The translations under genes were made by a program, and so were the position numbers. A stretch of 64,000 nucleotides of DNA from Candidatus Eiseniibacteriota bacterium. GTDB lineage: Bacteria > Eisenbacteria > RBG-16-71-46 > SZUA-252. The first letter of the stretch is position 1. The number at the start of each line of letters is the position of its first letter. Of the stretch, positions 1-35,091 are shown one piece after another. The stretch lies in the NCBI GenBank assembly GCA_003235575.1, contig QJVW01000079.1, positions 25,525 through 89,524 of the forward strand, in the 5' to 3' direction. The notes beneath the pieces are model-generated. The model saw only the letters and a program-made list of their open reading frames with translations, was not told the origin of the DNA and did not search any database.

Positions 1-1082
1 GCCGCCACGAGGTGCGGGCGTTTCTGCTCAGCAGCGCCCTCTTCTGGCTCGACCGGTATCACATCGACGGCATTCGCGTGGACGCCGTGGCCTCGATGTT
101 GTACCTCGACTACTCGCGCCGCGAGGGGGAGTGGATACCGAACGAACACGGCGGCCGGGAAAATCTCGAGGCGATCGGATTTCTTCGCGAGATGAACGAG
201 CGCGTGTACGGGGAGTATCCCGACGCGTTCACGACCGCCGAGGAATCGACGTCGTGGCCGATGGTCTCGCGTCCGCTCTACGTCGGAGGCCTGGGCTTCG
301 GATTCAAGTGGGATATGGGCTGGATGCACGACACGCTCACGTTCATGTCCAAGGACCCGATCCACCGCCGATTCCATCACCACGCGCTGACGTTCCGGAT
401 GATCTACGCCTACCACGAGAACTTCATGCTCCCGCTCTCCCACGACGAAATCGTGCACGGCAAGGGATCCCTGTTGGGGAAGATGCCCGGCGACGAGTGG
501 CAGCGCTTCGCCAACCTTCGCCTGATGCAGGCGTGGATGTATGCGCAACCCGGAAAGAAGCTTCTGTTCATGGGGGGCGAGTTCGGGCAGTACGCGGAGT
601 GGAGTCACGATCGGAGTCTGGATTGGCACCTGCTCGACCACGAGCCGCACCGCGGGGTGCAGCGGCTCATCGGAGATCTGAACCGGCTGTATCGGGAGCA
701 CCGCGCCCTGCATCAGTTCGATTGTGACAGCGCCGGGTTCGAGTGGGTCGACTGCACCGATCAGGACCAAAGCGTGGTCAGCTTTCTCCGGCGCGGGGAA
801 GATCCCGACGAGGCCGCTCTCTTCGTCTTCAACTTCACGCCGGTGCCCCGGCACAACTACCGGGTCGGCGTTCCCTGGCCCGGCGCGTGGCGCGAGATCC
901 TGAACACCGACGCCAGCCACTACGGTGGCAGCGGCCATGGCAACCTGGGCAACGTCGCGACCGCGCCGGTCTCCTTTCACGGCCGGGCGCAGTCGCTGAA
1001 CCTCGTCATCCCCCCGCTTGCCGCGGTGGCGTTTCTCGGCTCGCGGCATGGCGGCGCGCCGTCGGAGGGGCGCAGCGGGTGA
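1..1082 (+). CDS. glgB: 1,4-alpha-glucan branching enzyme, C-terminal part (5' truncated by window edge)
   Basis: GH13 GlgB motifs: [65 protein letters not shown]. Confidence 0.96.
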
Positions 1083-2959
1083 CGTGGACCGCCTCGCTGG
1101 GGGCGATACCGCAGTCGGAGGGGACGCGATTCCGACTCTGGGCCCCTAGCGCCCGCCGGGTCGAGGTCGTTCTCGAGAAGGGCGGCACGCGCCGCGCGGT
1201 GCCCCTGACGGCCTCCACGACCGGGATGTTCGGTGGGATGATTCCAAACGTCGGTCCGGGCGATCGGTACCACTACCGCGTGGACGACAACGACCCCATG
1301 CCCGATCCCGCCTCCCGGTCCCAGCCGGACGGCGTCCACGGCGCGTCGGAGGTGGTCGACCCCGCGGCGTTCGCGTGGAGCGACGGGTCGTGGGAGGGCG
1401 TCCCCCTGGAATCCCTGGTGCTGTACGAACTACACGTGGGGACGTTCACCCCGGAGGGGACCTTCGCCGCCGCGGCGGATCGGCTCCCGATGCTTCGCGA
1501 CCTGGGCGTCACCGCCATCGAACTGATGCCGCTCGCGGATTTCCCGGGCGCGCACAACTGGGGGTACGACGGCGCCGCGCTCTTCGCCCCCGCGCGGTGC
1601 TACGGCACGCCCGACGACGTGCGGCGATTCATCGATCGCGCGCACAGCCTCGGCCTGGCGGTGCACCTGGACATCGTGTTCAACCACTTGGGACCCGACG
1701 GCGCCTATCTCGCCGCCATCGCGCCGGCGGTCTTCTCCACCACGCACCGGAGCCCATGGGGAGCCGGCATCAATCTCGACGGGCCGGGGAGCGAGGGGGT
1801 TCGCTCGTTCTTCATCGAATGCGCGCTTCACTGGATCCACGAGTATCACCTCGACGGGCTGCGCCTGGACGCGACGCACGCCCTGGTGGACGAGAGCCCG
1901 CGGCATTTCCTGTCGGAACTGGCGGAGCGCGTGCGCTCCACCGTGCGGGGCCGGACGGTGCTGCTGATCGCGGAAGACGCGCGCAACCTCGCGGTGACCG
2001 TCCAGCCCGTGCATCGAGGCGGGTGGGGCATGGACGCCGTGTGGTCCGATGATTTCCACCATCTCATCCGGCGCATCCTGACGGGGGACCGCGAAGGCTA
2101 CTTCGTCGACTACACCGATCGCGTCGAGGACCTTGCCGCGGCGCTGAACCAGGGGTGGTTCTACACGGGCCAGTTCGCTCCCTACTTCAATGCGCCTCGA
2201 GGCACCGATCCGACCGGCATCGCGGCGCGGCGCTTCGTCATCTGCATCCAGAACCACGATCAGGTCGGCAACCGGGCGCACGGCGATCGGCTGCATCACG
2301 CGGCGTCCTTGCCGGCCTATCGAGCCGCGAGCGCCGTGTTGCTCTGCGCGCCGCAGACGCCGCTGCTCTTCATGGGGCAGGAGTGGGCGTGCTCGACGCC
2401 GTTCCAATTCTTCACGGACCACGCCGGGGAACTGGGGGAGCTGGTCCGCACGGGTCGCGCCCGCGAGTTCGAACGATTTCCCTCGTTCGCGGAGCCGTCG
2501 GCGCGATCGCGCATCCCCGATCCCCAGGCAACCGAGACGTTCGTGCGAAGCCGCCTCCAGTGGTCGGAGCGCGAGCGATCCCCCCACCGGGAGACGCTCC
2601 AGCTCTACGCCGACCTTCTGGAGCGCCGCCGCACCGAACCGGCGCTGAACAGCGCGGGCGATGCCAGCGGCGCGGCCCGCGCGCTCGACGCGCAGACGCT
2701 GCTCCTGCTGCGGAGGGCGCCGGAGGGCCATGACCTGCTCCTGATCGCACGGTTGCGCGGGGCGGGGACCGTCACGCTCACCGCCGAGGACGCCGGCTCG
2801 GGTTCGGAGCCTTGGGAGCTCATCCTCGACACCGAGGATCCCCGGTACGCGCCGGATCCCCGGCCGATCGAGCTGTCGGGCGCCGCCGGCGCCGTGCAAA
2901 TCCACTTCACGCGCCCCGGCGCGATCCTCCTTCGCCGCGAAGGAAGTGAGACGGGATGA
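1079..2959 (+). CDS. treZ: Malto-oligosyltrehalose trehalohydrolase
   Basis: FRLWAP start region, [37 protein letters not shown]. Start taken at GTG 1079, which overlaps the glgB stop (GTGA), rather than the ORF-track start at 743. Confidence 0.93.
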
Positions 2960-25207: not shown

Positions 25208-27361
25208 ATGATCGTGGCGAATGCACGGCGTGCCTTGGGGTTGCAGCGTCGCCGAGGTATACCCGATCCCACGAGCCGGCCCGTTCGCCGTGCCGGTCGC
25301 CTGGTCGTGATCCTCGCCATCGCGGGCCTGCTGGCTGCTTCCCACGGTTGGGCCCAGGACCCCGCCGCCAGCGCTCCGGCGACGCCCGACGAGGACTGTC
25401 TGGACTGCCACTCCGACGGCGCGCTCGAAACCGCCCGTATCCGCGGTCGCGTGGTCTCCCTGGACATCAATCCGACGATCCTTCGCCACTCGGCGCACCC
25501 CAAGGCCGCCTGCGTCGACTGCCATGCGGGATACGACCCGGAGGAGACGCCGCATCGCGCGACCATGACGCGCGTCGCCTGCGGCCGGTGCCACGAGTCG
25601 ATCGAGACGCTTCACGCCGCGTCGCTCCATGGACAGGCGGCCGCTCGGGGGGACCCGCTCGCGCCGCTCTGTCAGGATTGCCATGGGGGGCACGACGTCC
25701 TGCCGGTGCACGACCCCGACTCGCCGGTGGCGCCGCTTCGCATCCCGGCCCTCTGCGGGAAGTGCCACCAGGAGGGAGCGTCGGTCCAGCGCCAGCGAAC
25801 GATTCACCAGGACCGGATCGTGGAGAATTTCTCCGAGAGCATCCACGGGGAGGGGCTCCTTCGCAAAGGCCTCGTCGTGGCGCCGAGTTGCGTCTCGTGT
25901 CACACGGCGCACTCCATTCTTCCCCACACGAATCCGGCCTCGTCGATCGCCCGGCAGCGTATCGCGTCGACCTGCGCCCACTGCCACGCGGAAATCGAGC
26001 GCGTCCATCGCAAGATCATCAAGGGCGAACTCTGGGAAAAGCAGGCGCACGTGCTCCCCGCCTGCGTCGACTGCCACCAGCCGCACAAGATCCGGAAGGT
26101 CTTCTACGACCAGGGAATGGCCGACAAGGATTGCATGCGGTGCCACGGGAACACGGACTTGACCGCCACCGCCGATGGCCGCTCCCTCTACGTCGACGCC
26201 ACGCGGGTCGCGGCATCCCGCCACGCGAAGACCTCCTGCAGCCAGTGCCACACGGATGTCACGGCCTCCCGCGAGCGACCGTGCGAGACGATCGTCAGCA
26301 AGGTCGACTGCTCCTCGTGTCACGCCGAGATCGGGCAGGAATACCAGGCGAGCATGCACGGGGAACTCCAGGCGAAGAACGATCCGAACGCGCCGACCTG
26401 CAAGGAGTGCCACGGGGCGCACGAGGTCCTGGGCAAACTACAACCGGAGTCGCCGACGTTTCCCACCAACGTTCCCCGCCTGTGCGCCCGCTGTCATCGG
26501 GAAGGGGAGGAAGCGGCGAAGCGTTACAAGGGAAGCGAGCACGACATCGTGGCGCATTACACGGAGAGCATTCACGGCAAGGGCCTGATGAAGAGCGGGC
26601 TGACCGTGACCGCCATGTGTTCCAGCTGTCACACGGCGCACTCCGAGCGTCCGAAGGACGATCCGGCTTCGAGCGTGAACCCCGCCAACATTCCGGGCAC
26701 CTGCGGGCGATGCCACCACGGCATCGAGGAGCAGTTCGCGAGCAGCATCCACGCGGCGACCGCGGCGAACGCCGACAAGGAGCTACCGGTCTGCAGCGAC
26801 TGCCACTCGGCGCACACGATCTCCCGCACCGACGTCACGGGGTTCAAGCTCGACATCATGACGAAGTGCGGTCGGTGTCATGAGGAGATCTCGAAATCCT
26901 ACTTCGACACCTACCACGGCAAGGTGTCCCAGTTGGGGTACACGAAGACGGCCAAGTGCTACGATTGCCATGGGTCCCACGACATCCTGCCCGCAACCGA
27001 TCCGCGCTCGCATTTGAGCCGCGGCCATGTCGTGGAGACATGCCGGAAGTGCCACGCCGGCGCGACCCGTCGCTTCGCCGGCTACCTCACGCACGCGACA
27101 CACCACGACCCGAAGAAGTATCCGTTCCTCTTCTGGACGTTCTGGGGCATGACGTCGCTGCTCATCGGTACGTTCGTTGTCGGCGGTCTGCACACCGCGC
27201 TCTGGCTTCCGCGAGCGCTGGCCATGCGCCGGGAACGGAGCCGAGGCAAGACGGACGGCGACGACACCGCCGGGCCGGAGCACCCCGACGATGCCGCCGC
27301 GCCGCGCGATCCGGACGGACCGCCGTCGTCCCCGGGCGAGGAGGAACCGCATGATTCCTGA
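25208..27361 (+). CDS. Multiheme cytochrome c, 19 CxxCH, C-terminal membrane anchor
   Basis: 19 CxxCH motifs counted manually; signal peptide; C-terminal TM FLFWTFWGMTSLLIGTFVVGGLH. Confidence 0.93.
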   Translation: MIVANARRALGLQRRRGIPDPTSRPVRRAGRLVVILAIAGLLAASHGWAQDPAASAPATPDEDCLDCHSDGALETARIRGRVVSLDINPTILRHSAHPKAACVDCHAGYDPEETPHRATMTRVACGRCHESIETLHAASLHGQAAARGDPLAPLCQDCHGGHDVLPVHDPDSPVAPLRIPALCGKCHQEGASVQRQRTIHQDRIVENFSESIHGEGLLRKGLVVAPSCVSCHTAHSILPHTNPASSIARQRIASTCAHCHAEIERVHRKIIKGELWEKQAHVLPACVDCHQPHKIRKVFYDQGMADKDCMRCHGNTDLTATADGRSLYVDATRVAASRHAKTSCSQCHTDVTASRERPCETIVSKVDCSSCHAEIGQEYQASMHGELQAKNDPNAPTCKECHGAHEVLGKLQPESPTFPTNVPRLCARCHREGEEAAKRYKGSEHDIVAHYTESIHGKGLMKSGLTVTAMCSSCHTAHSERPKDDPASSVNPANIPGTCGRCHHGIEEQFASSIHAATAANADKELPVCSDCHSAHTISRTDVTGFKLDIMTKCGRCHEEISKSYFDTYHGKVSQLGYTKTAKCYDCHGSHDILPATDPRSHLSRGHVVETCRKCHAGATRRFAGYLTHATHHDPKKYPFLFWTFWGMTSLLIGTFVVGGLHTALWLPRALAMRRERSRGKTDGDDTAGPEHPDDAAAPRDPDGPPSSPGEEEPHDS

Positions 27362-28193
27362 CCGCGGGGATCTTCACTTCCAGCGGTTCTCGCGACTGAA
27401 CCGCCTGCTGCACATCGTGATGATCGTCAGTTTTCTGTCCCTGGCGCTGACGGGGCTGACGCTGAAATTCTCCTATACGGGTTGGGCCCGGCTCATGGCC
27501 CGCCTGTTCGGGGGGTTCGAGTCGGCCGGATATGTCCACCGCGTGGGCGCCGTGCTGATGATCGTGACGTTCCTCACCCACCTCGTCGATCTGGTCCGCC
27601 GCAAGAGCCGCGAATTCGGGACGTGGCGCAATCTCCTGTTCGGACCGAACACGATGCTCTTCACGCGCCGCGACTGGCGTGAATTCGTGGGGAGCATTCG
27701 GTGGTTCCTGGGAAAGGGGCCGCGCCCGCAGTACGGGCGGTGGACCTACTGGGAGAAGTTCGACTACTTCGCCGTCTTCTGGGGAATGATGGTGATCGGA
27801 TCGACCGGGCTGATGCTCTGGTTCTCGGAGTTGTTCACGATCGTGATTCCCGGATGGTTCCTGAACGTCGCGACCATCGTCCACAGCGACGAAGCGCTCC
27901 TGGCGGTCGGATTCATCTTCACCGTCCATTTCTTCAACACACACCTGCGGCCCGAGAAATTCCCCATGGACATCGTCATCTTCACCGGGCGGATGCCGCT
28001 CGAGGAGTTCCGAGAAGACAAGCCCGGCGAATACGCCGAGTTGGTCCGCCGCGGGGAACTGGAGCAGCACCTGGTCGAGCCGTACCCTCCCATCGTGATT
28101 CGCGCGATACGCGCCTTCGGTTTCACGGCGGTCGCGCTGGGGTTCACCATCGTTGTCTGGATCATCTACGCGATGGTGTTCGCATACCGGTGA
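27351..28193 (+). CDS. FdnI/HydC-type diheme cytochrome b
   Basis: LLHIVMIVSF, VHRVGA, YGRWTYWEKFDYFAVFWG, IVHSDEALLA...TVHF; ATG 27351 overlaps the upstream gene. Confidence 0.85.
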   Translation: MIPDRGDLHFQRFSRLNRLLHIVMIVSFLSLALTGLTLKFSYTGWARLMARLFGGFESAGYVHRVGAVLMIVTFLTHLVDLVRRKSREFGTWRNLLFGPNTMLFTRRDWREFVGSIRWFLGKGPRPQYGRWTYWEKFDYFAVFWGMMVIGSTGLMLWFSELFTIVIPGWFLNVATIVHSDEALLAVGFIFTVHFFNTHLRPEKFPMDIVIFTGRMPLEEFREDKPGEYAELVRRGELEQHLVEPYPPIVIRAIRAFGFTAVALGFTIVVWIIYAMVFAYR

Positions 28194-30424
28194 CCGCGCG
28201 GCGTCGCATCCTCCGCCTGGCGCTGGGACTGGCCCTGATCGGCGGCTCGCTCGCGGCGCTCTCCGGGGGAGGCGGGCAGGCGTCCGCGCGCGTGGCACGG
28301 AGCGCGGCGGGGCCGAACGCCGACGAGACCTGCCTCGAATGCCACAGCGGCGGAACCCTGGGGCCACGCCTCGTTCGCGGCGCGATGGTTCCCATGGACA
28401 TCGACCCGGCGTTGCTTCGCGCCTCGGCCCACGGCCGTTTCACCTGCATCAAGTGCCACGTCGGGTTCAACGCCGCGCGCACGCCCCACCGGGCGCGCAC
28501 GACGCCGGTCGATTGCGGACGCTGCCACGCCGATGCCGATTCGATTCACCAGTTTCACGCGCCGGCTACGAGCCGCGCGCTGACCGGCTCGTCGGCGGCG
28601 TTCACGTGCACCCTCTGTCACGGATCGCACGCCGTCGCCGGGGGGCACGCCGACACCACGCCCGAGGGCGCGCGCGCCATCGCCGTCGCCTGCGCGCGGT
28701 GCCACCAGGAGGAGGTGACCCACTACGCGAAGTCCGCGCATGGGCGGGCCGCGGCCGCGGGGCAGACCGGAGCGCCGACGTGCCTCTCCTGCCACACGAA
28801 CGAGATCAGCGCGGCGCGGTTTCAGGGGACCATCGCCGATCGCAAGCTGGAGCAGGAGCGGCTGTGCCTCCAGTGCCACCTGGAGGACCCCGAAGTTCGC
28901 CGGCGCATGGGGCCCAAGGCGGGCTTCATTCGGGCGTACGACGTCAGCGTCCACGGGGCGGCCCTGCACGCCGGCGACGACAAGGCGGCCACCTGCATCG
29001 ACTGCCACGGCAGCCACGACATGGCCAAGGGGTACGAGGAGGGGGCGCTCACCGAGAAACGCCATATCCCCGAGACGTGCGGTCAGTGCCACGAAAAGAT
29101 AGCCCACACCTTCGAGGCCAGCGTGCACGGCGAGGCGGTGCGGGAAGGAGTCACCGACGCGCCGGTTTGCACGGATTGCCACGGGGAGCACACGATCAAG
29201 AAGGCGGACGCCCCGGACTCTCCCGTGGCGCCGGGCAACGTCTCCGTCGAGGTTTGCTCGCCCTGCCACTCCTCCGTTCGCCTCGCCACGAAGTACGGCA
29301 TCCGAAGCGATCGGTACCAGACGTACAGCGATTCCTTCCACGGTCTGGCCATCCGTGGCGGCCAGGTATCCGCCGCCAATTGCGCGTCGTGCCACGGGTC
29401 GCACGACATTCTCCCGTCGGCCGATCCGCGAAGCATGATCTACCCGGGAAATTTGGCGACGACCTGCGGCCAATGCCATCCCGGCGCCAGCGCCGCCTTC
29501 GCCTCCGGCAAGGTGCACCTGGAGCCGGTGGCGTCCGACGAGCCGCTCCTCTACTGGATTGCGACGATCTACACGTTCCTCATCGTCGGGGTGGTGGGGG
29601 GGATGTTCCTCCACAACGCCGTCGACTTCTACCGGAAGGCGCGCCACCGGCTTCGTCGCCGCCGGGGGCTGGAACCCGAGCCCGAGCCGGTCGGCCATGC
29701 CCTCTACGTGCGGATGACGCGGAGCGAGCGTCTGCAGCACGCCTCGCTGCTGGTCAGCTTCGTCGTGCTGGTCGTGACCGGATTCATGCTGCGCTACCCC
29801 GAGTCGTGGTGGGTGGAGGGGCTCCGGCGGGTCTGGGGCGACCTCTTCGAGATTCGAAGCATCGTGCACCGCATCGCCGGGGTGCTCATGGTCGGGGCAT
29901 CCGTCGTCCACCTCCACTACCTGGGCTTCACGGAACGCGGCCGCGGATTCCTTCGCGACATGCTTCCGCGCCCGTCGGACCTGGGCGACGTGATCGGGGC
30001 CTTGCGCTACTATGCGGGTCTGACGCAAGATCGCCCGCGATTCGGGCGGTTCTCCTACATCGAGAAGGCCGAGTACTGGGCGCTCGTGTGGGGGACCGTG
30101 GTCATGGCCGTTACGGGAGTGATTCTGTGGTTCCAGGATCCGTTCATCGCCTTGCTGACCAAGCTGGGGTGGGATGCCGCGCGTTCCATCCACTACTACG
30201 AGGCCGTGCTGGCGACGCTGGCGATCCTGGTCTGGCACATCTATTTCGTAATCTTCAATCCCGATGTCTATCCCATGAACCTGGCCTGGTTGAAGGGGAC
30301 GCTCACCGAGGAGGAAATGGAGGACGAGCACCCGCTCGAGCTGGAGGCGATCCGTCGCCGACGCGAGCAGGAGAAGGCGGACTCCACGGTGCCGGACCCG
30401 GAAAGGGAGGAGCCGCGTGAATGA
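28190..30424 (+). CDS. CbcL-like fusion: 13-heme cytochrome c plus FdnI-type cytochrome b
   Basis: 13 CxxCH motifs, then QHASLL, VHRIAG, FGRFSYIEKAEYWALVWG, IHYYEAVLA...WHIY; GTG 28190 overlaps the upstream stop. Confidence 0.88.
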   Translation: MTARRRILRLALGLALIGGSLAALSGGGGQASARVARSAAGPNADETCLECHSGGTLGPRLVRGAMVPMDIDPALLRASAHGRFTCIKCHVGFNAARTPHRARTTPVDCGRCHADADSIHQFHAPATSRALTGSSAAFTCTLCHGSHAVAGGHADTTPEGARAIAVACARCHQEEVTHYAKSAHGRAAAAGQTGAPTCLSCHTNEISAARFQGTIADRKLEQERLCLQCHLEDPEVRRRMGPKAGFIRAYDVSVHGAALHAGDDKAATCIDCHGSHDMAKGYEEGALTEKRHIPETCGQCHEKIAHTFEASVHGEAVREGVTDAPVCTDCHGEHTIKKADAPDSPVAPGNVSVEVCSPCHSSVRLATKYGIRSDRYQTYSDSFHGLAIRGGQVSAANCASCHGSHDILPSADPRSMIYPGNLATTCGQCHPGASAAFASGKVHLEPVASDEPLLYWIATIYTFLIVGVVGGMFLHNAVDFYRKARHRLRRRRGLEPEPEPVGHALYVRMTRSERLQHASLLVSFVVLVVTGFMLRYPESWWVEGLRRVWGDLFEIRSIVHRIAGVLMVGASVVHLHYLGFTERGRGFLRDMLPRPSDLGDVIGALRYYAGLTQDRPRFGRFSYIEKAEYWALVWGTVVMAVTGVILWFQDPFIALLTKLGWDAARSIHYYEAVLATLAILVWHIYFVIFNPDVYPMNLAWLKGTLTEEEMEDEHPLELEAIRRRREQEKADSTVPDPEREEPRE

Positions 30425-30863
30425 CGATCGTACCGCCGATCCGGAACGGCGGGGCGTCCTGGTGTGGCTGACGCGAGGGTTCCTGGCTCTGTGGGCGCCG
30501 GCCGCCGCGGGGGTGACCACGACCTTCCTCAAGGCGCCCTCCGCGGAGGAGCGCCCGGGGGAGCGCCAATTGAAGGTCGGCTCCCTCTCGTCGCTGGCCG
30601 TCGGGGACGCGCGCTTCGTTCGGCACGGCACGGAGCCCGTCTACGTGCTTCGCGTCGGCGAGACGGAAGTGCTGGCTCTTTCGGCGATCTGCACGCACAT
30701 GCGCTGCGTGCTCAAATGGGATCGCGAGAAGGAGCTCTTTCACTGTCCGTGCCACGACGGGGTCTTCGACCGTCAGGGCAACGTGCTTTCGGGCCCGCCC
30801 AAGAAGCCGCTGCGTCACTATCGGGCGGACGTTCGCGCGGACGAAATCGTGGTCCACACATGA
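30417..30863 (+). CDS. Rieske [2Fe-2S] protein
   Basis: RRGVL twin-arginine anchor; boxes CTHMRC and CPCHDG; GPPKKPL. Confidence 0.9.
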   Translation: MNDDRTADPERRGVLVWLTRGFLALWAPAAAGVTTTFLKAPSAEERPGERQLKVGSLSSLAVGDARFVRHGTEPVYVLRVGETEVLALSAICTHMRCVLKWDREKELFHCPCHDGVFDRQGNVLSGPPKKPLRHYRADVRADEIVVHT

Positions 30864-30875
30864 GCGGAGGCCCTC

Positions 30876-32000
30876 GTGGACCCGAAACCGAACGATAAGC
30901 GATCCGTTCTGACGTGGATCGAAGATCGCGTCAATCTCACGGAGATCATTTCCTTCCTGAGCGTGTTCGGGCTGCTCCCCTCGGAGCTCGATTCGCGCAA
31001 ACGCGTGCGGGAGGCACTGGGCGAGGTGATGCGGCGGCCGCTCCCCTCGTACGCGCGCTGGCCGCACGTGCTCGGCATTCTGTCCTTCATCCTCTTCCTG
31101 TTTCTCGGTCTGACCGGAACGATGCTGGCGTTCTACTACCAGCCGACGGCCGACGTCGCCTACTCCTCGGTCACCTTGATCGCGCGCGACGTGGCGTTCG
31201 GGGGCTTGATCCACCAGGTGCACTACTGGGCCGCCGTGCTGTTCCTGCTGGTGCTGGGCGCCCGCGTCATTCGGTTCTTCTTCACGGGGCTCTACGCGCG
31301 GGGCCGGGAGGCGATCTGGATGGTGGCGGTGCTCACCTTCGTCTTCGCCACGATCGCCGACATGACAGGACGCCTCCTGCCATGGGACACCGCCGGCTAC
31401 TGGACCACGATCCGGGCGCGGGAAGTGACGGACGCCTTGCCGATCCTGGGGCCGATCACGGCGTTTCTCGTGGGGGGAAGCGGCCTTGATTCGCTGGTGC
31501 TGACGCGCTACTACGTGCTCCACATCGCCGTGTTCCCGTTGATCCTCGTGCTGCTCTTCTACATTCACTTCTCGAGCGTTCGCCGCGTCGGGCTCTCCCG
31601 CGTGGACCGGGCCCCGGGCACGCGCTCGCTTCGCGTGGCGATGTACGACCTGCTCCTGCTGGTCCTCTTCATGGTCGGGGGGCTCATCACCTTCGCCGTG
31701 CTCTTGCCGCATTCGTTCGGCGTGGTGGCGGACCCGTTCACGACGCCGCCGGACGCGCATCCACCCTGGTACCTCCTGGCGCCGCACGCGCTGATGGAGG
31801 CGTTCCCGGCGTTCGTGCCGAAGTTCCTTCGCGGGCTGATCCCGGAGATCATGCTGGCCGCCGTGCTCTTCCTGCCGTTCCTGGATCCGGAATCGGGCTC
31901 CGGGACGCGCCGGCGCCTCTTCCGGAACGTCGGGATCGGCGTGCTGCTGCTCTGGGTGGTGCTGACCGTCGCCGGATGGCGTCTGGAGGTGGGGCGATGA
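30876..32000 (+). CDS. Cytochrome b of a Rieske/cytochrome b complex (b6-like N-terminal and subunit IV-like parts fused)
   Basis: GTMLAFYYQPT, HYWAA, TGRLLPWD...GYW, LTRYYVLH...IH, PPWY (PEWY-equivalent). Confidence 0.88.
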   Translation: MDPKPNDKRSVLTWIEDRVNLTEIISFLSVFGLLPSELDSRKRVREALGEVMRRPLPSYARWPHVLGILSFILFLFLGLTGTMLAFYYQPTADVAYSSVTLIARDVAFGGLIHQVHYWAAVLFLLVLGARVIRFFFTGLYARGREAIWMVAVLTFVFATIADMTGRLLPWDTAGYWTTIRAREVTDALPILGPITAFLVGGSGLDSLVLTRYYVLHIAVFPLILVLLFYIHFSSVRRVGLSRVDRAPGTRSLRVAMYDLLLLVLFMVGGLITFAVLLPHSFGVVADPFTTPPDAHPPWYLLAPHALMEAFPAFVPKFLRGLIPEIMLAAVLFLPFLDPESGSGTRRRLFRNVGIGVLLLWVVLTVAGWRLEVGR

Positions 32001-33295
32001 GCGGCGTGGCGTGGCTCCTGCGGATCGCCGCGGTCGTCGTGCTGGCGGCGCCCGTTTCGGCCCAAGACGCGCCAACGGAAGCGATCACGCTTCCGGGCGG
32101 TCATGAGGAGACGAAGCCGCCCGCCCGCACCGTTCCGGCGGGAGCGAAGCCGAAGGGCACGTCCAAGATGTGCGGCGTGTGCCACTCGGAGGTGCGCGTG
32201 AAGTACGAGCAGGGGGCGCACGATCGGGAGGGAATCGGCTGCACGTCCTGCCACGGGGGAAACGCCGACGCCATCACCGTCGGGTCGGCCCACACGGGCG
32301 GCTATCGCGGCGTGCCCGCGCGCCGCGCGATTCCCGCGCTGTGCGCGTCGTGCCACGCGGACGTGACCAAGATGCGGTTCTACAACCTGCCCTCGGACCA
32401 GTACGCGCTCTACCAGACGTCGCAGCACGGCGTCCTGCTCGCGAAGGGCGACAGCAACGCCGCGGTCTGCACCGATTGCCATGGCGTCCACGAAATCCGT
32501 CCGCCCGAGGACCCGCAAAGCCGCGTCTTCGGGCGCAACATACCGAGCACCTGCGGCACCTGCCATGGAACGCCGTCGTTCCAGGCCCGCTACAAACGGA
32601 AGGACAACCCGGTCACCGACTATCGGAAGGGCGTGCACGGGCGCGCGTACCTGACGGGCGCCAGCGACACGGCTCCCGAGTGCACCGCGTGCCACGGCAG
32701 TCACGGCGCCACGCCCCCCGGCGTCGGCGATGTGGAGAAGGTGTGCGGACAGTGCCACGAGACGGCGCGCGAGTACTTCGTGGGGAGCGCCCACAAGCAG
32801 GCGATGGACGACGCGGGGATCCCGGAGTGCGCCGCCTGTCACCACAGCCACAATACGATCGCCGTCGCGCCGCAGAAGATCAGCACCGTGTGTCAGGAGT
32901 GTCATGACGAGGGAGAGCCGCCGCTCCGCGTGGCCACCACGCTCGAGCGGATGATCGCGGAGGCGTCCGAGGAGATCGCGAAGGCGGACAGCCTCGTCGC
33001 GCAGGCGGCGAGCATCCCGCTGTACGTGGAGGACTACCGCTCCAGGCTCCAAGACGCGCGAACCGCCCTGCTGGAATCGGCGCCGGTCACCCACTCGCTC
33101 GACACGACGCTCGTCGAGCCGCACACGCGCCGTGCGCGATCCATCGCGGCGACGGTGAGTGAAGAAGTCGACGAGAAGTTGTCGAGTCGATGGTGGCACA
33201 AGGTCGGCCTGGGACTGTTCTGGTTCTACCTTCTGCTGACGGCCGCGATCATCACCAGGGCCCGCCGTCGGGCCGCGGCGGATTCCAAGCGGTGA
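31997..33295 (+). CDS. Multiheme cytochrome c, 9 CxxCH, C-terminal membrane anchor
   Basis: 9 CxxCH motifs; signal peptide; helical stalk; TM VGLGLFWFYLLLTAAII; ATGA overlap. Confidence 0.9.
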   Translation: MSGVAWLLRIAAVVVLAAPVSAQDAPTEAITLPGGHEETKPPARTVPAGAKPKGTSKMCGVCHSEVRVKYEQGAHDREGIGCTSCHGGNADAITVGSAHTGGYRGVPARRAIPALCASCHADVTKMRFYNLPSDQYALYQTSQHGVLLAKGDSNAAVCTDCHGVHEIRPPEDPQSRVFGRNIPSTCGTCHGTPSFQARYKRKDNPVTDYRKGVHGRAYLTGASDTAPECTACHGSHGATPPGVGDVEKVCGQCHETAREYFVGSAHKQAMDDAGIPECAACHHSHNTIAVAPQKISTVCQECHDEGEPPLRVATTLERMIAEASEEIAKADSLVAQAASIPLYVEDYRSRLQDARTALLESAPVTHSLDTTLVEPHTRRARSIAATVSEEVDEKLSSRWWHKVGLGLFWFYLLLTAAIITRARRRAAADSKR

Positions 33296-35091
33296 CACCA
33301 CGATTCCGCCTCCCCTCGCTGCCGCCGTCGTGGCGGGGGCGGCTGACGTCCGCGCCCATCCGCACGGCCGGATTCGCCCTGGCCTTGATGGTCGCGCTGG
33401 GCTTGATCGCGACGGTGACCGCCGTCGAGGTCACCAGCAAGCCGCGCTTCTGCGGTTCCTGCCACATCATGGCGCCCTACTACGAGTCGTGGCAGCACTC
33501 CTCGCACCACAACATCGCGTGCGTGGAATGCCACATCCCGCCCGGCGTCACCGCCGAGATCCGCAAGAAGTTCGAGGCGCTGTCCATGGTGGCTCGCTAC
33601 TTCACCGGGACGTACGGCACGAACCCCTGGACGGAGATCGAGGATGCGGCATGCCTGCGCTGCCACGAGCGTCGGCTCCTGGCGGGGAAGGAGTTGATCG
33701 GCGACATCGTCTTCGATCACACGGCGCACCTGTCCGAAATGCGCCGGGGCAAGACCCTGCGCTGCACGTCCTGCCACGGCCAGCTCGTGCAGGGAAGCCA
33801 CATCGCGGTCACCACGTCGACCTGCATCCTCTGCCACTTCAAGGGCGTGGAGGAGGGCGAGGAGACCACCCGGTGCGTCATCTGCCACACCACGCCGTCC
33901 AAGACCTACGAGTTGGGTTCGGTTCAATTCCGGCACTCGGACGTGACGCGGTACGGCATGGAGTGTCGGTGGTGCCACGAAAAGCCCCAGGGGAGCGAGG
34001 GCGAGGTGCCGCGCGAGCGCTGCGTGACCTGCCACAATCAGACCATTCGCCTGGAGAAGTACGGCGAGACCGAGTTGCTGCACCGAAAGCACGTCTCCGA
34101 GCACAAGATCGATTGCATGGATTGCCACCTGCACCTCGAACACGTGGCGCCGCTGGGCGAGGCCGGGTCGAAGAACGCGGCGGCCCGCCTGCAGGCGGCC
34201 ACCTCGCGGATTCACAAGGGGGCGTCGGAGTGCCGCGCCTGCCACGAGGCCGGGCACTCGCCGCAGCTGGCGCTCTATACGGGCACCGGCGGACGCAACG
34301 TGGAGTCGAGCCCGAGTCCCATGTTCGAATCGGGCGTGCGCTGCGAGGGGTGCCACATCCGGCTACCCGGCCAGGCGTCGGAGGTGCGGCGCGCGTCGGA
34401 TGTGTCGTGCATGGCGTGCCATGGTCCCGACTATCGGAAGATCTACCTCTCGTGGAAGTCGTCGATCGACCAGCGGTCGGGGGCGCTGGGCCGGCAACTG
34501 GCCGAGACCGCCCGCGCGATCGGGACCGCCACGCCGCGCTTCGCGGATGCCCGATTCAACCACGATCTCGTCGCGCGCGGTCGGGGCGTGCACAACGTGG
34601 AGTACGCCAACGCGCTGCTCCGACAGTCGCACGCGGACATGAACGCCGCACGTCGGGGCCGCGGCCTGGCTCCCCTGCCGCGTCCCTGGCCCGAACCGCC
34701 GTACGCGTCGCCCTGCTTCCGCTGTCACGAGGGCGTCGAGCAGCAACGCGGCTCGATGTTCGGGAAGCCCTTTGCGCACGAGCGCCACGTGGTCGCCTCG
34801 AAGATCGATTGCGCCGCCTGTCATCGAACGCACGAGGAACGGGACGAAGGAGAGGTGGTGCGCTTCGGGGCCTCAGGATGCGTGTCGTGTCACCACAAGC
34901 CGCCGGTCGCGGACTGCATCACATGCCACGGCGACGTACGCAAGCATACGGTCACGTCGTTCCGCGGCGAATTCGACCATGCCACGCACCTCGACGACGC
35001 GGAGAAGACCTGCGTCGAGTGCCATGACCTCAAGGCGCCGCCGCCGGGGGTGCGGACGAGCGTCTGCGCGGAGTGTCACGAGGACGAGTGA
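33292..35091 (+). CDS. Multiheme cytochrome c, 18 CxxCH, NapC/NirT-like N-terminus
   Basis: N-terminal TM then TSKPRFCGSCHIM..YYESWQHSSH...CVECH; 18 CxxCH motifs counted manually; GTGA overlap. Confidence 0.9.
   Translation: MTPRFRLPSLPPSWRGRLTSAPIRTAGFALALMVALGLIATVTAVEVTSKPRFCGSCHIMAPYYESWQHSSHHNIACVECHIPPGVTAEIRKKFEALSMVARYFTGTYGTNPWTEIEDAACLRCHERRLLAGKELIGDIVFDHTAHLSEMRRGKTLRCTSCHGQLVQGSHIAVTTSTCILCHFKGVEEGEETTRCVICHTTPSKTYELGSVQFRHSDVTRYGMECRWCHEKPQGSEGEVPRERCVTCHNQTIRLEKYGETELLHRKHVSEHKIDCMDCHLHLEHVAPLGEAGSKNAAARLQAATSRIHKGASECRACHEAGHSPQLALYTGTGGRNVESSPSPMFESGVRCEGCHIRLPGQASEVRRASDVSCMACHGPDYRKIYLSWKSSIDQRSGALGRQLAETARAIGTATPRFADARFNHDLVARGRGVHNVEYANALLRQSHADMNAARRGRGLAPLPRPWPEPPYASPCFRCHEGVEQQRGSMFGKPFAHERHVVASKIDCAACHRTHEERDEGEVVRFGASGCVSCHHKPPVADCITCHGDVRKHTVTSFRGEFDHATHLDDAEKTCVECHDLKAPPPGVRTSVCAECHEDE

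Follow-up and report, generated by a model that had tools for sequence, protein, structure and literature searches.

A cytochrome b gene from an uncultivated bacterium (Candidatus Eiseniibacteriota; contig QJVW01000079.1, positions 25,525 to 89,524, hereafter the window of 64,000 nucleotides) encodes arginine where cytochromes b of Q-cycle complexes carry a histidine ligand of heme bH. The gene lies at window positions 30876 to 32000 on the plus strand, which also holds every other feature of the window described here, and its 374-amino acid product is a member of what we call the Arg130 family. Arg130 is a natural family trait, the synapomorphy of a single clade, and is neither a chance substitution nor an error. 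As judged from alignments, it is certain that a bis-histidine heme on the negative (n) side of the membrane is absent from every family member, and it is likely that no n-side heme of any sort is physically present. With confidence somewhat better than even, we read the protein as a natural cytochrome b without bis-histidine heme bH that works only at the Qo site, as a probably non-electrogenic menaquinol:multiheme-cytochrome oxidoreductase.

The protein is of the fused b6 plus subunit-IV type with 7 predicted transmembrane helices. Its membership in the cytochrome b superfamily is supported by Pfam matches to the N-terminal four-helix heme-binding domain (PF00033; 3e-33, 115.6 bits versus a gathering cut-off of 27.2) and to the C-terminal subunit-IV/petD-like domain that carries the ef-loop Qo motif (PF00032; 29.9 bits versus a cut-off of 20.7). 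An AlphaFold2 (AF2) model of the 374 residues has a predicted local distance difference test score (pLDDT) of 83, and Foldseek aligned it to cytochrome b chains with TM scores of 0.65–0.75; by fold and sequence, the closest solved structures are those of cytochrome b6/subunit IV and bacterial bc complexes. Helix B was aligned by HMMER without gaps to the b6 chains 2zt9_A, 1q90_B and 1vf5_A (E ~1e-34). By b6f numbering, the heme on the positive (p) side, termed bL or bp, is bound by His86 and His187, and the n-side heme, termed bH or bn, by His100 and His202. The alignment pairs His116 (31221 to 31223) with His86, His216 (31521 to 31523) with His187 and His231 (31566 to 31568) with His202. At the remaining position, that of His100 as the second histidine of helix B, is Arg130, encoded by a CGC codon (31263 to 31265) that is one base from CAC. 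The helix-D histidines show the 14-residue spacing typical of b6. These assignments bear out the preliminary description of the gene, made from the DNA letters and their translations, which had placed arginine at a heme-ligand position in a gap-free b6 alignment with His116 kept and the His216/His231 pair intact. That description had also remarked on a missing heme ci cysteine and on a PPWY motif in place of PEWY. Both are present as described, and neither is unusual in itself. Val65 stands at the position of the ci ligand Cys35 (CxGG motif), which is Val, Ile or Leu across the family, and most canonical relatives likewise lack the cysteine, making Val65 ordinary. The PPWY motif (residues 296–299; 31761 to 31772) has proline at the glutamate position, as do 92% of family members; none of 71 loci encodes glutamate there. 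Some complexes with a non-acidic Qo motif are nonetheless functional (PMC4122944).

Conservation of Arg130 is absolute. A word-indexed search returned 121 close homologues of 54–100% identity, all with arginine at this position. When 1.84 billion cluster representatives were searched exhaustively with HMMER, 4,554 matched. Arginine is present in all of the approximately 17 best 50%-identity representatives (above 170 bits and extending to 35% identity), while sequences scoring about 166 bits or less are of the canonical kind, with all four histidines and either PEWY or PDWY. In a combined alignment, arginine was found in 199/199 family members, down to approximately 33% identity, versus histidine in 127/127 canonical sequences. 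A maximum-likelihood tree places the family in a single clade with maximal support (100 in the Shimodaira-Hasegawa-like approximate likelihood ratio test, SH-aLRT) on a branch of length 0.48. Across 71 species-level genomes, Arg130 is encoded by all six arginine codons (CGC 34, CGG 19, AGG 9, AGA 5, CGT 3, CGA 1), which indicates that selection acts on the amino acid. Fourteen of these genomes use AGR codons, at least two changes away from a histidine codon.

These data settle an alternative raised in the preliminary description, namely that the CGC codon is a single-base error. The codon does differ from CAC by one base. Nonetheless, arginine recurs in all 199 family sequences from independent assemblies, under six codons, and the condition that would have overturned the finding, histidine in all close homologues, fails in every one of the 121 examined. 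Decay of a normal cytochrome b gene is likewise ruled out: the open reading frame is intact, 33 alignment columns are invariant across 21 diverse members, and synteny is kept in 71 genomes. We give a sequencing or assembly error, or a pseudogene, practically no credence. The other alternative offered in that description, that heme bH has been lost or re-ligated and the complex does not run a standard Q cycle, gains support from the monophyly of the clade, relaxation at His231, loss of the Qo glutamate and retention of a canonical paralog in the same genome.

Carriers of the family were identified by scanning one genome per species. All 71 are metagenome-assembled genomes (MAGs), mostly of Candidatus Eisenbacteria, with others from Acidobacteriota (Polarisedimenticolia, Thermoanaerobaculia, Blastocatellia and Aminicenantes), Latescibacterota and Gemmatimonadota. 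Nearest relatives of the window protein, at 75–77% identity, are mostly from Eisenbacteria, and the best match (81%) is from a MAG labelled only Acidobacteriota. Several MAGs labelled Hyphomicrobiales, Bacteroidota, Patescibacteria, "uncultured Clostridia" or Gemmatimonas phototrophica contain clusters that are almost the same as clusters in MAGs of Eisenbacteria, Blastocatellia or Latescibacterota; for example, a branch length below 0.1 separates the oddly labelled locus L037 from L036, and likewise L059 from L070. Such labels seem to reflect mistakes in binning or naming, not lateral transfer.

The histidine that would pair with position 130 across the n-side heme site is no longer fixed. 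Position 231 is histidine in 164 members and another residue in 34 of 198 (threonine 14, asparagine 13, serine 3, glycine 3, tyrosine 1), the family tree requires at least 12 state changes at this position, and loss of His231 leaves every other signature residue in place. Because Arg130 is invariant at the helix-B ligand position and His231 is dispensable, a bis-histidine bH/bn heme cannot form. With the bH link gone, the Qo–bL–bH–Qi path of the classical Q cycle cannot exist. Invariant residues include both ligands of heme bL, His116 and His216, along with the heme-packing glycines Gly81 and Gly165. One subclade of Eisenbacteria combines Thr231 with histidine at position 30 (30963 to 30965), within an N-terminal insertion described below; its 11 sequences represent a single event. 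His30 may be a histidine shifted to the vicinity of the old heme position, and its gain hints that the insertion lies close by. The other lineages that lack His231 do not have His30. A replacement histidine was rejected as a solution for the family as a whole: only His116 and His216 are invariant, and His113 is variable and lies one turn toward the p-side.

Residues around the former heme site have also changed relative to canonical cytochromes b. Tyr229 (31560 to 31562), conserved in 91% of members, is a bulky residue beside the site where canonical proteins have glycine, alanine or valine. Together with histidine to Arg130, leucine to Phe232 and glycine to Ala151, it forms a set of shifts toward bulkier side chains, which is how a heme pocket that had been emptied and then filled would look. 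Helix C carries Asp162 and Arg166 (31359 to 31373) next to heme bL and the Qo pocket, where canonical proteins have glycine and tyrosine; Arg166 corresponds to bovine Tyr131. Arg104-Asp105, Gln114, Arg180 and Pro297, at the PEWY glutamate, are further family-typical residues. The N-terminal insertion of approximately 22 residues (residues 21–43; 30936 to 31004) is predicted on the n-side, has the consensus NLTEI.SF..FGL.P.ELD.RKP and is absent from canonical cytochromes b. It ranks with the most strongly conserved segments of the protein, with Glu23 and Ser26 invariant and Asp39 nearly so, and the AF2 model folds this region with moderate confidence into helices at 21–33 and 44–52.

The p-side machinery of a Q-cycle complex has been preserved, comprising heme bL and its two histidine ligands, the Qo pocket with its cd and ef loops, and the Rieske [2Fe-2S] protein. 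The adjacent Rieske gene (30417 to 30863; PF00355) encodes 148 amino acids with a Tat-like RR motif and the cluster-binding motifs CTHMRC and CPCHDGVF. Motifs of the type CxHxxC and CxCH are intact in 72/72 Arg-type modules. Surrounding residues differ from those of the canonical paralog. Box II of Arg-type modules reads CPCH[D/E/A]G.F, with glycine and phenylalanine in place of the serine and tyrosine of bc1 Rieske proteins, and box I contains arginine or histidine (CTH[LMV][RH]C), whereas the paralog has CACHNG.Y, with the tyrosine kept. Mutagenesis of bc1 Rieske proteins has established that hydrogen bonds from the serine and tyrosine raise the potential of the center. The box sequences suggest that Rieske midpoint potentials differ systematically between Arg-type and canonical modules. 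Since the p-side machinery is both retained and under selection, a Qo-type menaquinol oxidase is the simplest reading. MenA is encoded in the genome (179 bits versus a cut-off of 102), consistent with a menaquinone pool; MqnA of the futalosine route was not found in the genome.

The same organism carries a canonical counterpart. On contig C128 of its genome (approximately 1–2611, minus strand), we found a module of Rieske protein, cytochrome b with four histidines and PEWY, and multi-heme cytochrome. Sixteen related loci likewise have a second module nearby, consisting of Rieske protein, cytochrome b and a homologous 9-heme cytochrome. The cytochrome b of this neighboring module invariably combines four histidines and PEWY with Gly/Gly/Tyr as the signature residues, and no 18-heme gene follows any of the canonical modules in these 16 loci. 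The two types therefore share a Rieske protein, a fused cytochrome b and a C-terminally anchored 9-heme cytochrome, occur in the same genomes and are often adjacent. They differ in that the canonical cytochrome b forms a separate clade (SH-aLRT 100), has four histidines, PEWY and Gly/Gly/Tyr in place of Ala151/Asp162/Arg166, and lacks both the N-terminal insertion and an accompanying 18-heme gene of the NrfH type.

Seven genes in the same orientation (25208 to 35091) together encode 59 CxxCH motifs, and the Arg-type cytochrome b gene is the fifth of them. The first (25208 to 27361) encodes a c-type cytochrome of 19 hemes whose C-terminal part includes a hydrophobic segment. A stand-alone FdnI-type cytochrome b resembling Ni_hydr_CYTB follows (27351 to 28193, with ATG at 27351), then a CbcL-like fusion of a 13-heme c-type cytochrome to an FdnI/HydC-type diheme cytochrome b (28190 to 30424, likely GTG start at 28190). 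The CbcL-like design therefore occurs twice in the operon, once split between the 19-heme cytochrome and the separate FdnI-type cytochrome b and once fused. Downstream of the Rieske and cytochrome b genes, a 9-heme c-type cytochrome anchored in the membrane at its C-terminus (31976 to 33295) takes the place of cytochrome c1 or f. The last gene (33292 to 35091) encodes an 18-heme c-type cytochrome with an N-terminal membrane-anchored domain of the NrfH/NapC type; its reading frame is open from 33190, with a likely GTG start at 33292. The FdnI-type cytochrome b, 13-heme fusion, Rieske, 9-heme and, at its likely GTG, 18-heme genes each overlap the gene before them.

This arrangement is fixed across the family. 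The order Rieske, Arg-type cytochrome b, 9-heme and 18-heme cytochrome was found in every locus long enough to judge, and in most loci a fusion of an 11- to 13-heme cytochrome with cytochrome b lies directly upstream of the Rieske gene. The 18-heme cytochrome has CxxCHxM as its first heme motif, as do 48/50 orthologues; this is the signature of NrfH heme 1. Its N-terminal domain scores 63.5 bits against TIGR03153 (NrfH), below the cut-off of 134, and 44 bits against PF03264, versus a cut-off of 24. Given its first heme motif, the 18-heme cytochrome might act as a menaquinol dehydrogenase in its own right. The cluster would then provide up to four quinone-interacting modules, made up of this protein, the Qo site and two CbcL-like units.

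From these features we infer that heme bH is absent and that electrogenicity has been lost. The complex would operate as a Qo-only, non-electrogenic menaquinol oxidase, or in the reverse direction. In the forward direction, the first electron would pass from the Qo site to a Rieske center of lowered potential, then to the anchored 9-heme cytochrome and on to a periplasmic heme network. For the second electron we infer one of two routes. It may leave heme bL on the p-side, in which case the NrfH-type 18-heme cytochrome is the candidate physiological acceptor because it is the sole subunit that distinguishes Arg-type from canonical modules. Alternatively, heme bL, perhaps by way of a bL–bL contact in the dimer, may return the electron to a quinone species at Qo, with both electrons ultimately leaving through the Rieske center. 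Under either route, scalar protons would be released and no charge would be moved across the membrane. For a charge-translocating Q cycle to run, the acceptor potential must exceed that of the quinone pool by approximately the proton-motive force. A complex de-geared in this manner would be able to go on oxidizing quinol at acceptor potentials too low for such a cycle, and the canonical HHHH/PEWY Rieske/cytochrome b/9-heme paralog would serve when driving force is higher. Inner-membrane quinol oxidases of Geobacter (ImcH, CbcL and CbcBA) differ by acceptor potential, and the one working at lowest potential has been proposed not to conserve energy (bioRxiv 10.1101/2021.04.15.440034). Pairing of a canonical with a de-geared module fits switching of the Geobacter type to less-coupled quinol oxidases. 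We tentatively extend this proposal to a class of Rieske/cytochrome b complexes that possibly retain Qo bifurcation without a transmembrane low-potential chain. Such complexes might use two periplasmic multi-heme wires, one from the Rieske center to the 9-heme cytochrome and one from heme bL to the 18-heme cytochrome, or a new binding site for quinone or another ligand, lacking a cofactor, supplied directly by heme bL and formed in the emptied bH pocket by Arg130, Tyr229 and the n-side insertion.

Several points weigh against a Qo-only complex with an empty n-side. The AF2 model is ligand-free, and loss of the heme is read from sequence. Heme bL is rather deep for direct electron transfer to a periplasmic c heme, and the acceptor named above is a candidate only. 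Three further residues are invariant: Gly67, equivalent to the bovine Gly34 that packs on heme bH; Arg133, equivalent to bovine Arg100, a heme bH propionate partner; and Arg236 (b6 Arg207). Such conservation would be expected as well if an n-side heme had been retained or some other anionic ligand were bound. In 83% of members His231 persists, and it must have some function in most lineages. Absolute invariance of Arg130 is more than simple filling of a pocket needs, and its pairing with histidine, threonine, asparagine or serine at position 231 keeps the site polar, unlike the Phe/Leu or Trp/Trp pairs of other lineages without bH ligands. Those lineages are represented by unrelated cytochrome b cluster representatives: P0179 (Phe/Leu), P0217 (Phe/Leu, with PPWY), P0242 (Trp/Trp) and P0251 (tyrosine at the helix-B position). 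Ligands of the n-side heme seem to have been lost several times independently, with hydrophobic replacements rather than arginine.

Some of the same features have been weighed for a heme bH that is re-ligated rather than lost, either five-coordinate on His231 or, in members that have lost His231, without any protein axial ligand, with Arg130 on the distal side and modified transmembrane electron transfer to an n-side quinone or other acceptor. The invariant Gly67, Arg133 and Arg236, which in canonical complexes pack on or neutralize the n-side heme, would be explained, as would the prevalence of His231 and a specific chemical role for Arg130 suggested by its invariance; in the Thr231 clade, His30 could be a substitute ligand. 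Set against this are the repeated losses of His231 to threonine, asparagine, serine, glycine or tyrosine while other signature residues stay unchanged, crowding of the heme site by Tyr229 and Ala151, and the confinement of His30 to one event. Arginine is, to our knowledge, not an axial ligand of heme. We consider re-ligation unlikely. The vacated pocket might instead have been rebuilt as a polar site for quinone or another small molecule, lined by Arg130, Tyr229, residue 231 (histidine, threonine or asparagine) and the acidic insertion, and reduced directly by heme bL in a loop resembling the Q cycle without heme bH. Persistent polarity of the former ligand pair, conservation of Tyr229, invariance of Arg133 and Arg236, and the highly conserved Glu23, Ser26 and Asp39 of the insertion are compatible with such a site. 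The proposal is purely inferential, however, and the polar cluster is equally explicable as structural, for example as a salt bridge that braces helices B and D in place of the heme. We know of no precedent for a cofactor-free, bL-fed site in an emptied bH pocket, and hold this arrangement to be quite improbable.

Direction of electron flow was also considered. Electrons from Fe(II), a cathodic mineral or a partner cell could enter through the periplasmic multi-heme network and reduce menaquinone at a Qo-type site, making reverse operation the main function. The 59 c-heme motifs and several quinone-interacting modules, in an operon that has no terminal reductase, accord with this direction. 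The PPWY motif is also that of the bc1 complexes of Acidithiobacillus ferrooxidans, which group with gammaproteobacterial cytochromes b, and reversed bc1 operation has been proposed for Geobacter metallireducens, where it is discussed with the APWY clade (PMC4122944). Yet uphill reduction of quinone by a Rieske center normally needs energy supplied through the bH/Qi branch that the Arg130 family has lost, and box II of its Rieske proteins suggests a lowered rather than raised potential. A mainly reverse mode is, in our estimate, very doubtful.

Among known systems, the closest are b6/subunit IV of b6f and the fused 7-helix "green-clade" bacterial cytochromes b. They include the best solved-structure matches (E ~1e-34) and share the helix-D histidine spacing, 7 transmembrane helices, the cd-loop LPWD..GYW and ef-loop P.WY motifs, and an adjacent Rieske gene. 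The Arg130 family departs from them by invariant arginine for His100, a dispensable His202, absence of Cys35, PPWY rather than PEWY, the 22-residue n-side insertion, and partnership with 9-heme and 18-heme cytochromes rather than cytochrome f or c1. Geobacter sulfurreducens Cbc6/ExtMNOPQS contains a Rieske protein (ExtO), a cytochrome b (ExtP), ExtQ and cytochromes with 12, 10 and 4 hemes, and its function is uncharacterized (PMC5877670). Like the present operon, it embeds a Rieske/cytochrome b core in the multi-heme cytochrome cluster of an anaerobe. ExtP (NF040969, a cytochrome b of selenite/tellurite operons) is the best NCBIfam model for the 374-residue protein, but its score of 146.4 bits falls far short of the equivalog cut-off of 290 and membership was rejected. 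ExtP is a split, 23-kDa protein of the b6 type, its partner cytochromes are different, and the Ext cluster includes a porin, a rhodanese and a selenoprotein.

Three further systems share single traits with the family. Cytochromes b of Pyrobaculum lack the fourth histidine, which has been read as loss of heme bH (Kao and Hunte 2014, PMC4122944). The absence of one bH histidine is systematic and lineage-wide in both cases; the archaeal example is limited to one genus, concerns the fourth rather than the second histidine, and has no reported invariant arginine or multi-heme partners. The H212N cytochrome b of Rhodobacter capsulatus bc1 is a bH knockout whose active Qo site can still reduce heme bL (PMC4330944). 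It is a laboratory model of what the Arg130 family would be, although a crippled mutant, whereas the family is ancient and selected, with remodeled Qo and bL surroundings and new partner cytochromes. The bc1 complexes of A. ferrooxidans have the PPWY motif in a gammaproteobacterial, 8-helix cytochrome b with four histidines, and the motif arose there independently (PMC4122944).

No description of the Arg-for-histidine clade or of its 9-heme/18-heme partnership was found in searchable full-text literature, a search that did not extend to subscription journals, where prior mention is possible. The only natural precedent for a missing bH ligand that we found there is the remark on Pyrobaculum by Kao and Hunte. 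The same study, a major survey, dropped all sequences lacking any of the four histidines ahead of its analysis, as these were "considered as invariable" (PMC4122944), a filter that would have hidden the Arg130 family.

The four axial histidines of cytochrome b are usually treated as invariant. The clade described here is a genuine cytochrome b/Rieske module that fails this defining feature of canonical Q-cycle complexes of the bc1/b6f type. It is deep, spans multiple phyla and is under purifying selection, and it breaks the rule while keeping the Rieske protein, heme bL and the Qo loops. Arginine at b6 position 100, PPWY and the N-terminal insertion together provide an annotation marker for metagenomes of soil, sediment and groundwater, where such modules are currently labelled plain cytochrome b or "quinol-cytochrome oxidoreductase". 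A two-wire exit or a new pocket fed by heme bL would, if true, be a previously unknown wiring of the Qo reaction. If confirmed, the family would be a natural bH knockout in which to study how short-circuits at Qo are avoided or used and how electrons bifurcate into two periplasmic chains, and would offer a view of how complex III is de-geared in anaerobes that use acceptors of low potential, metal oxides among them.

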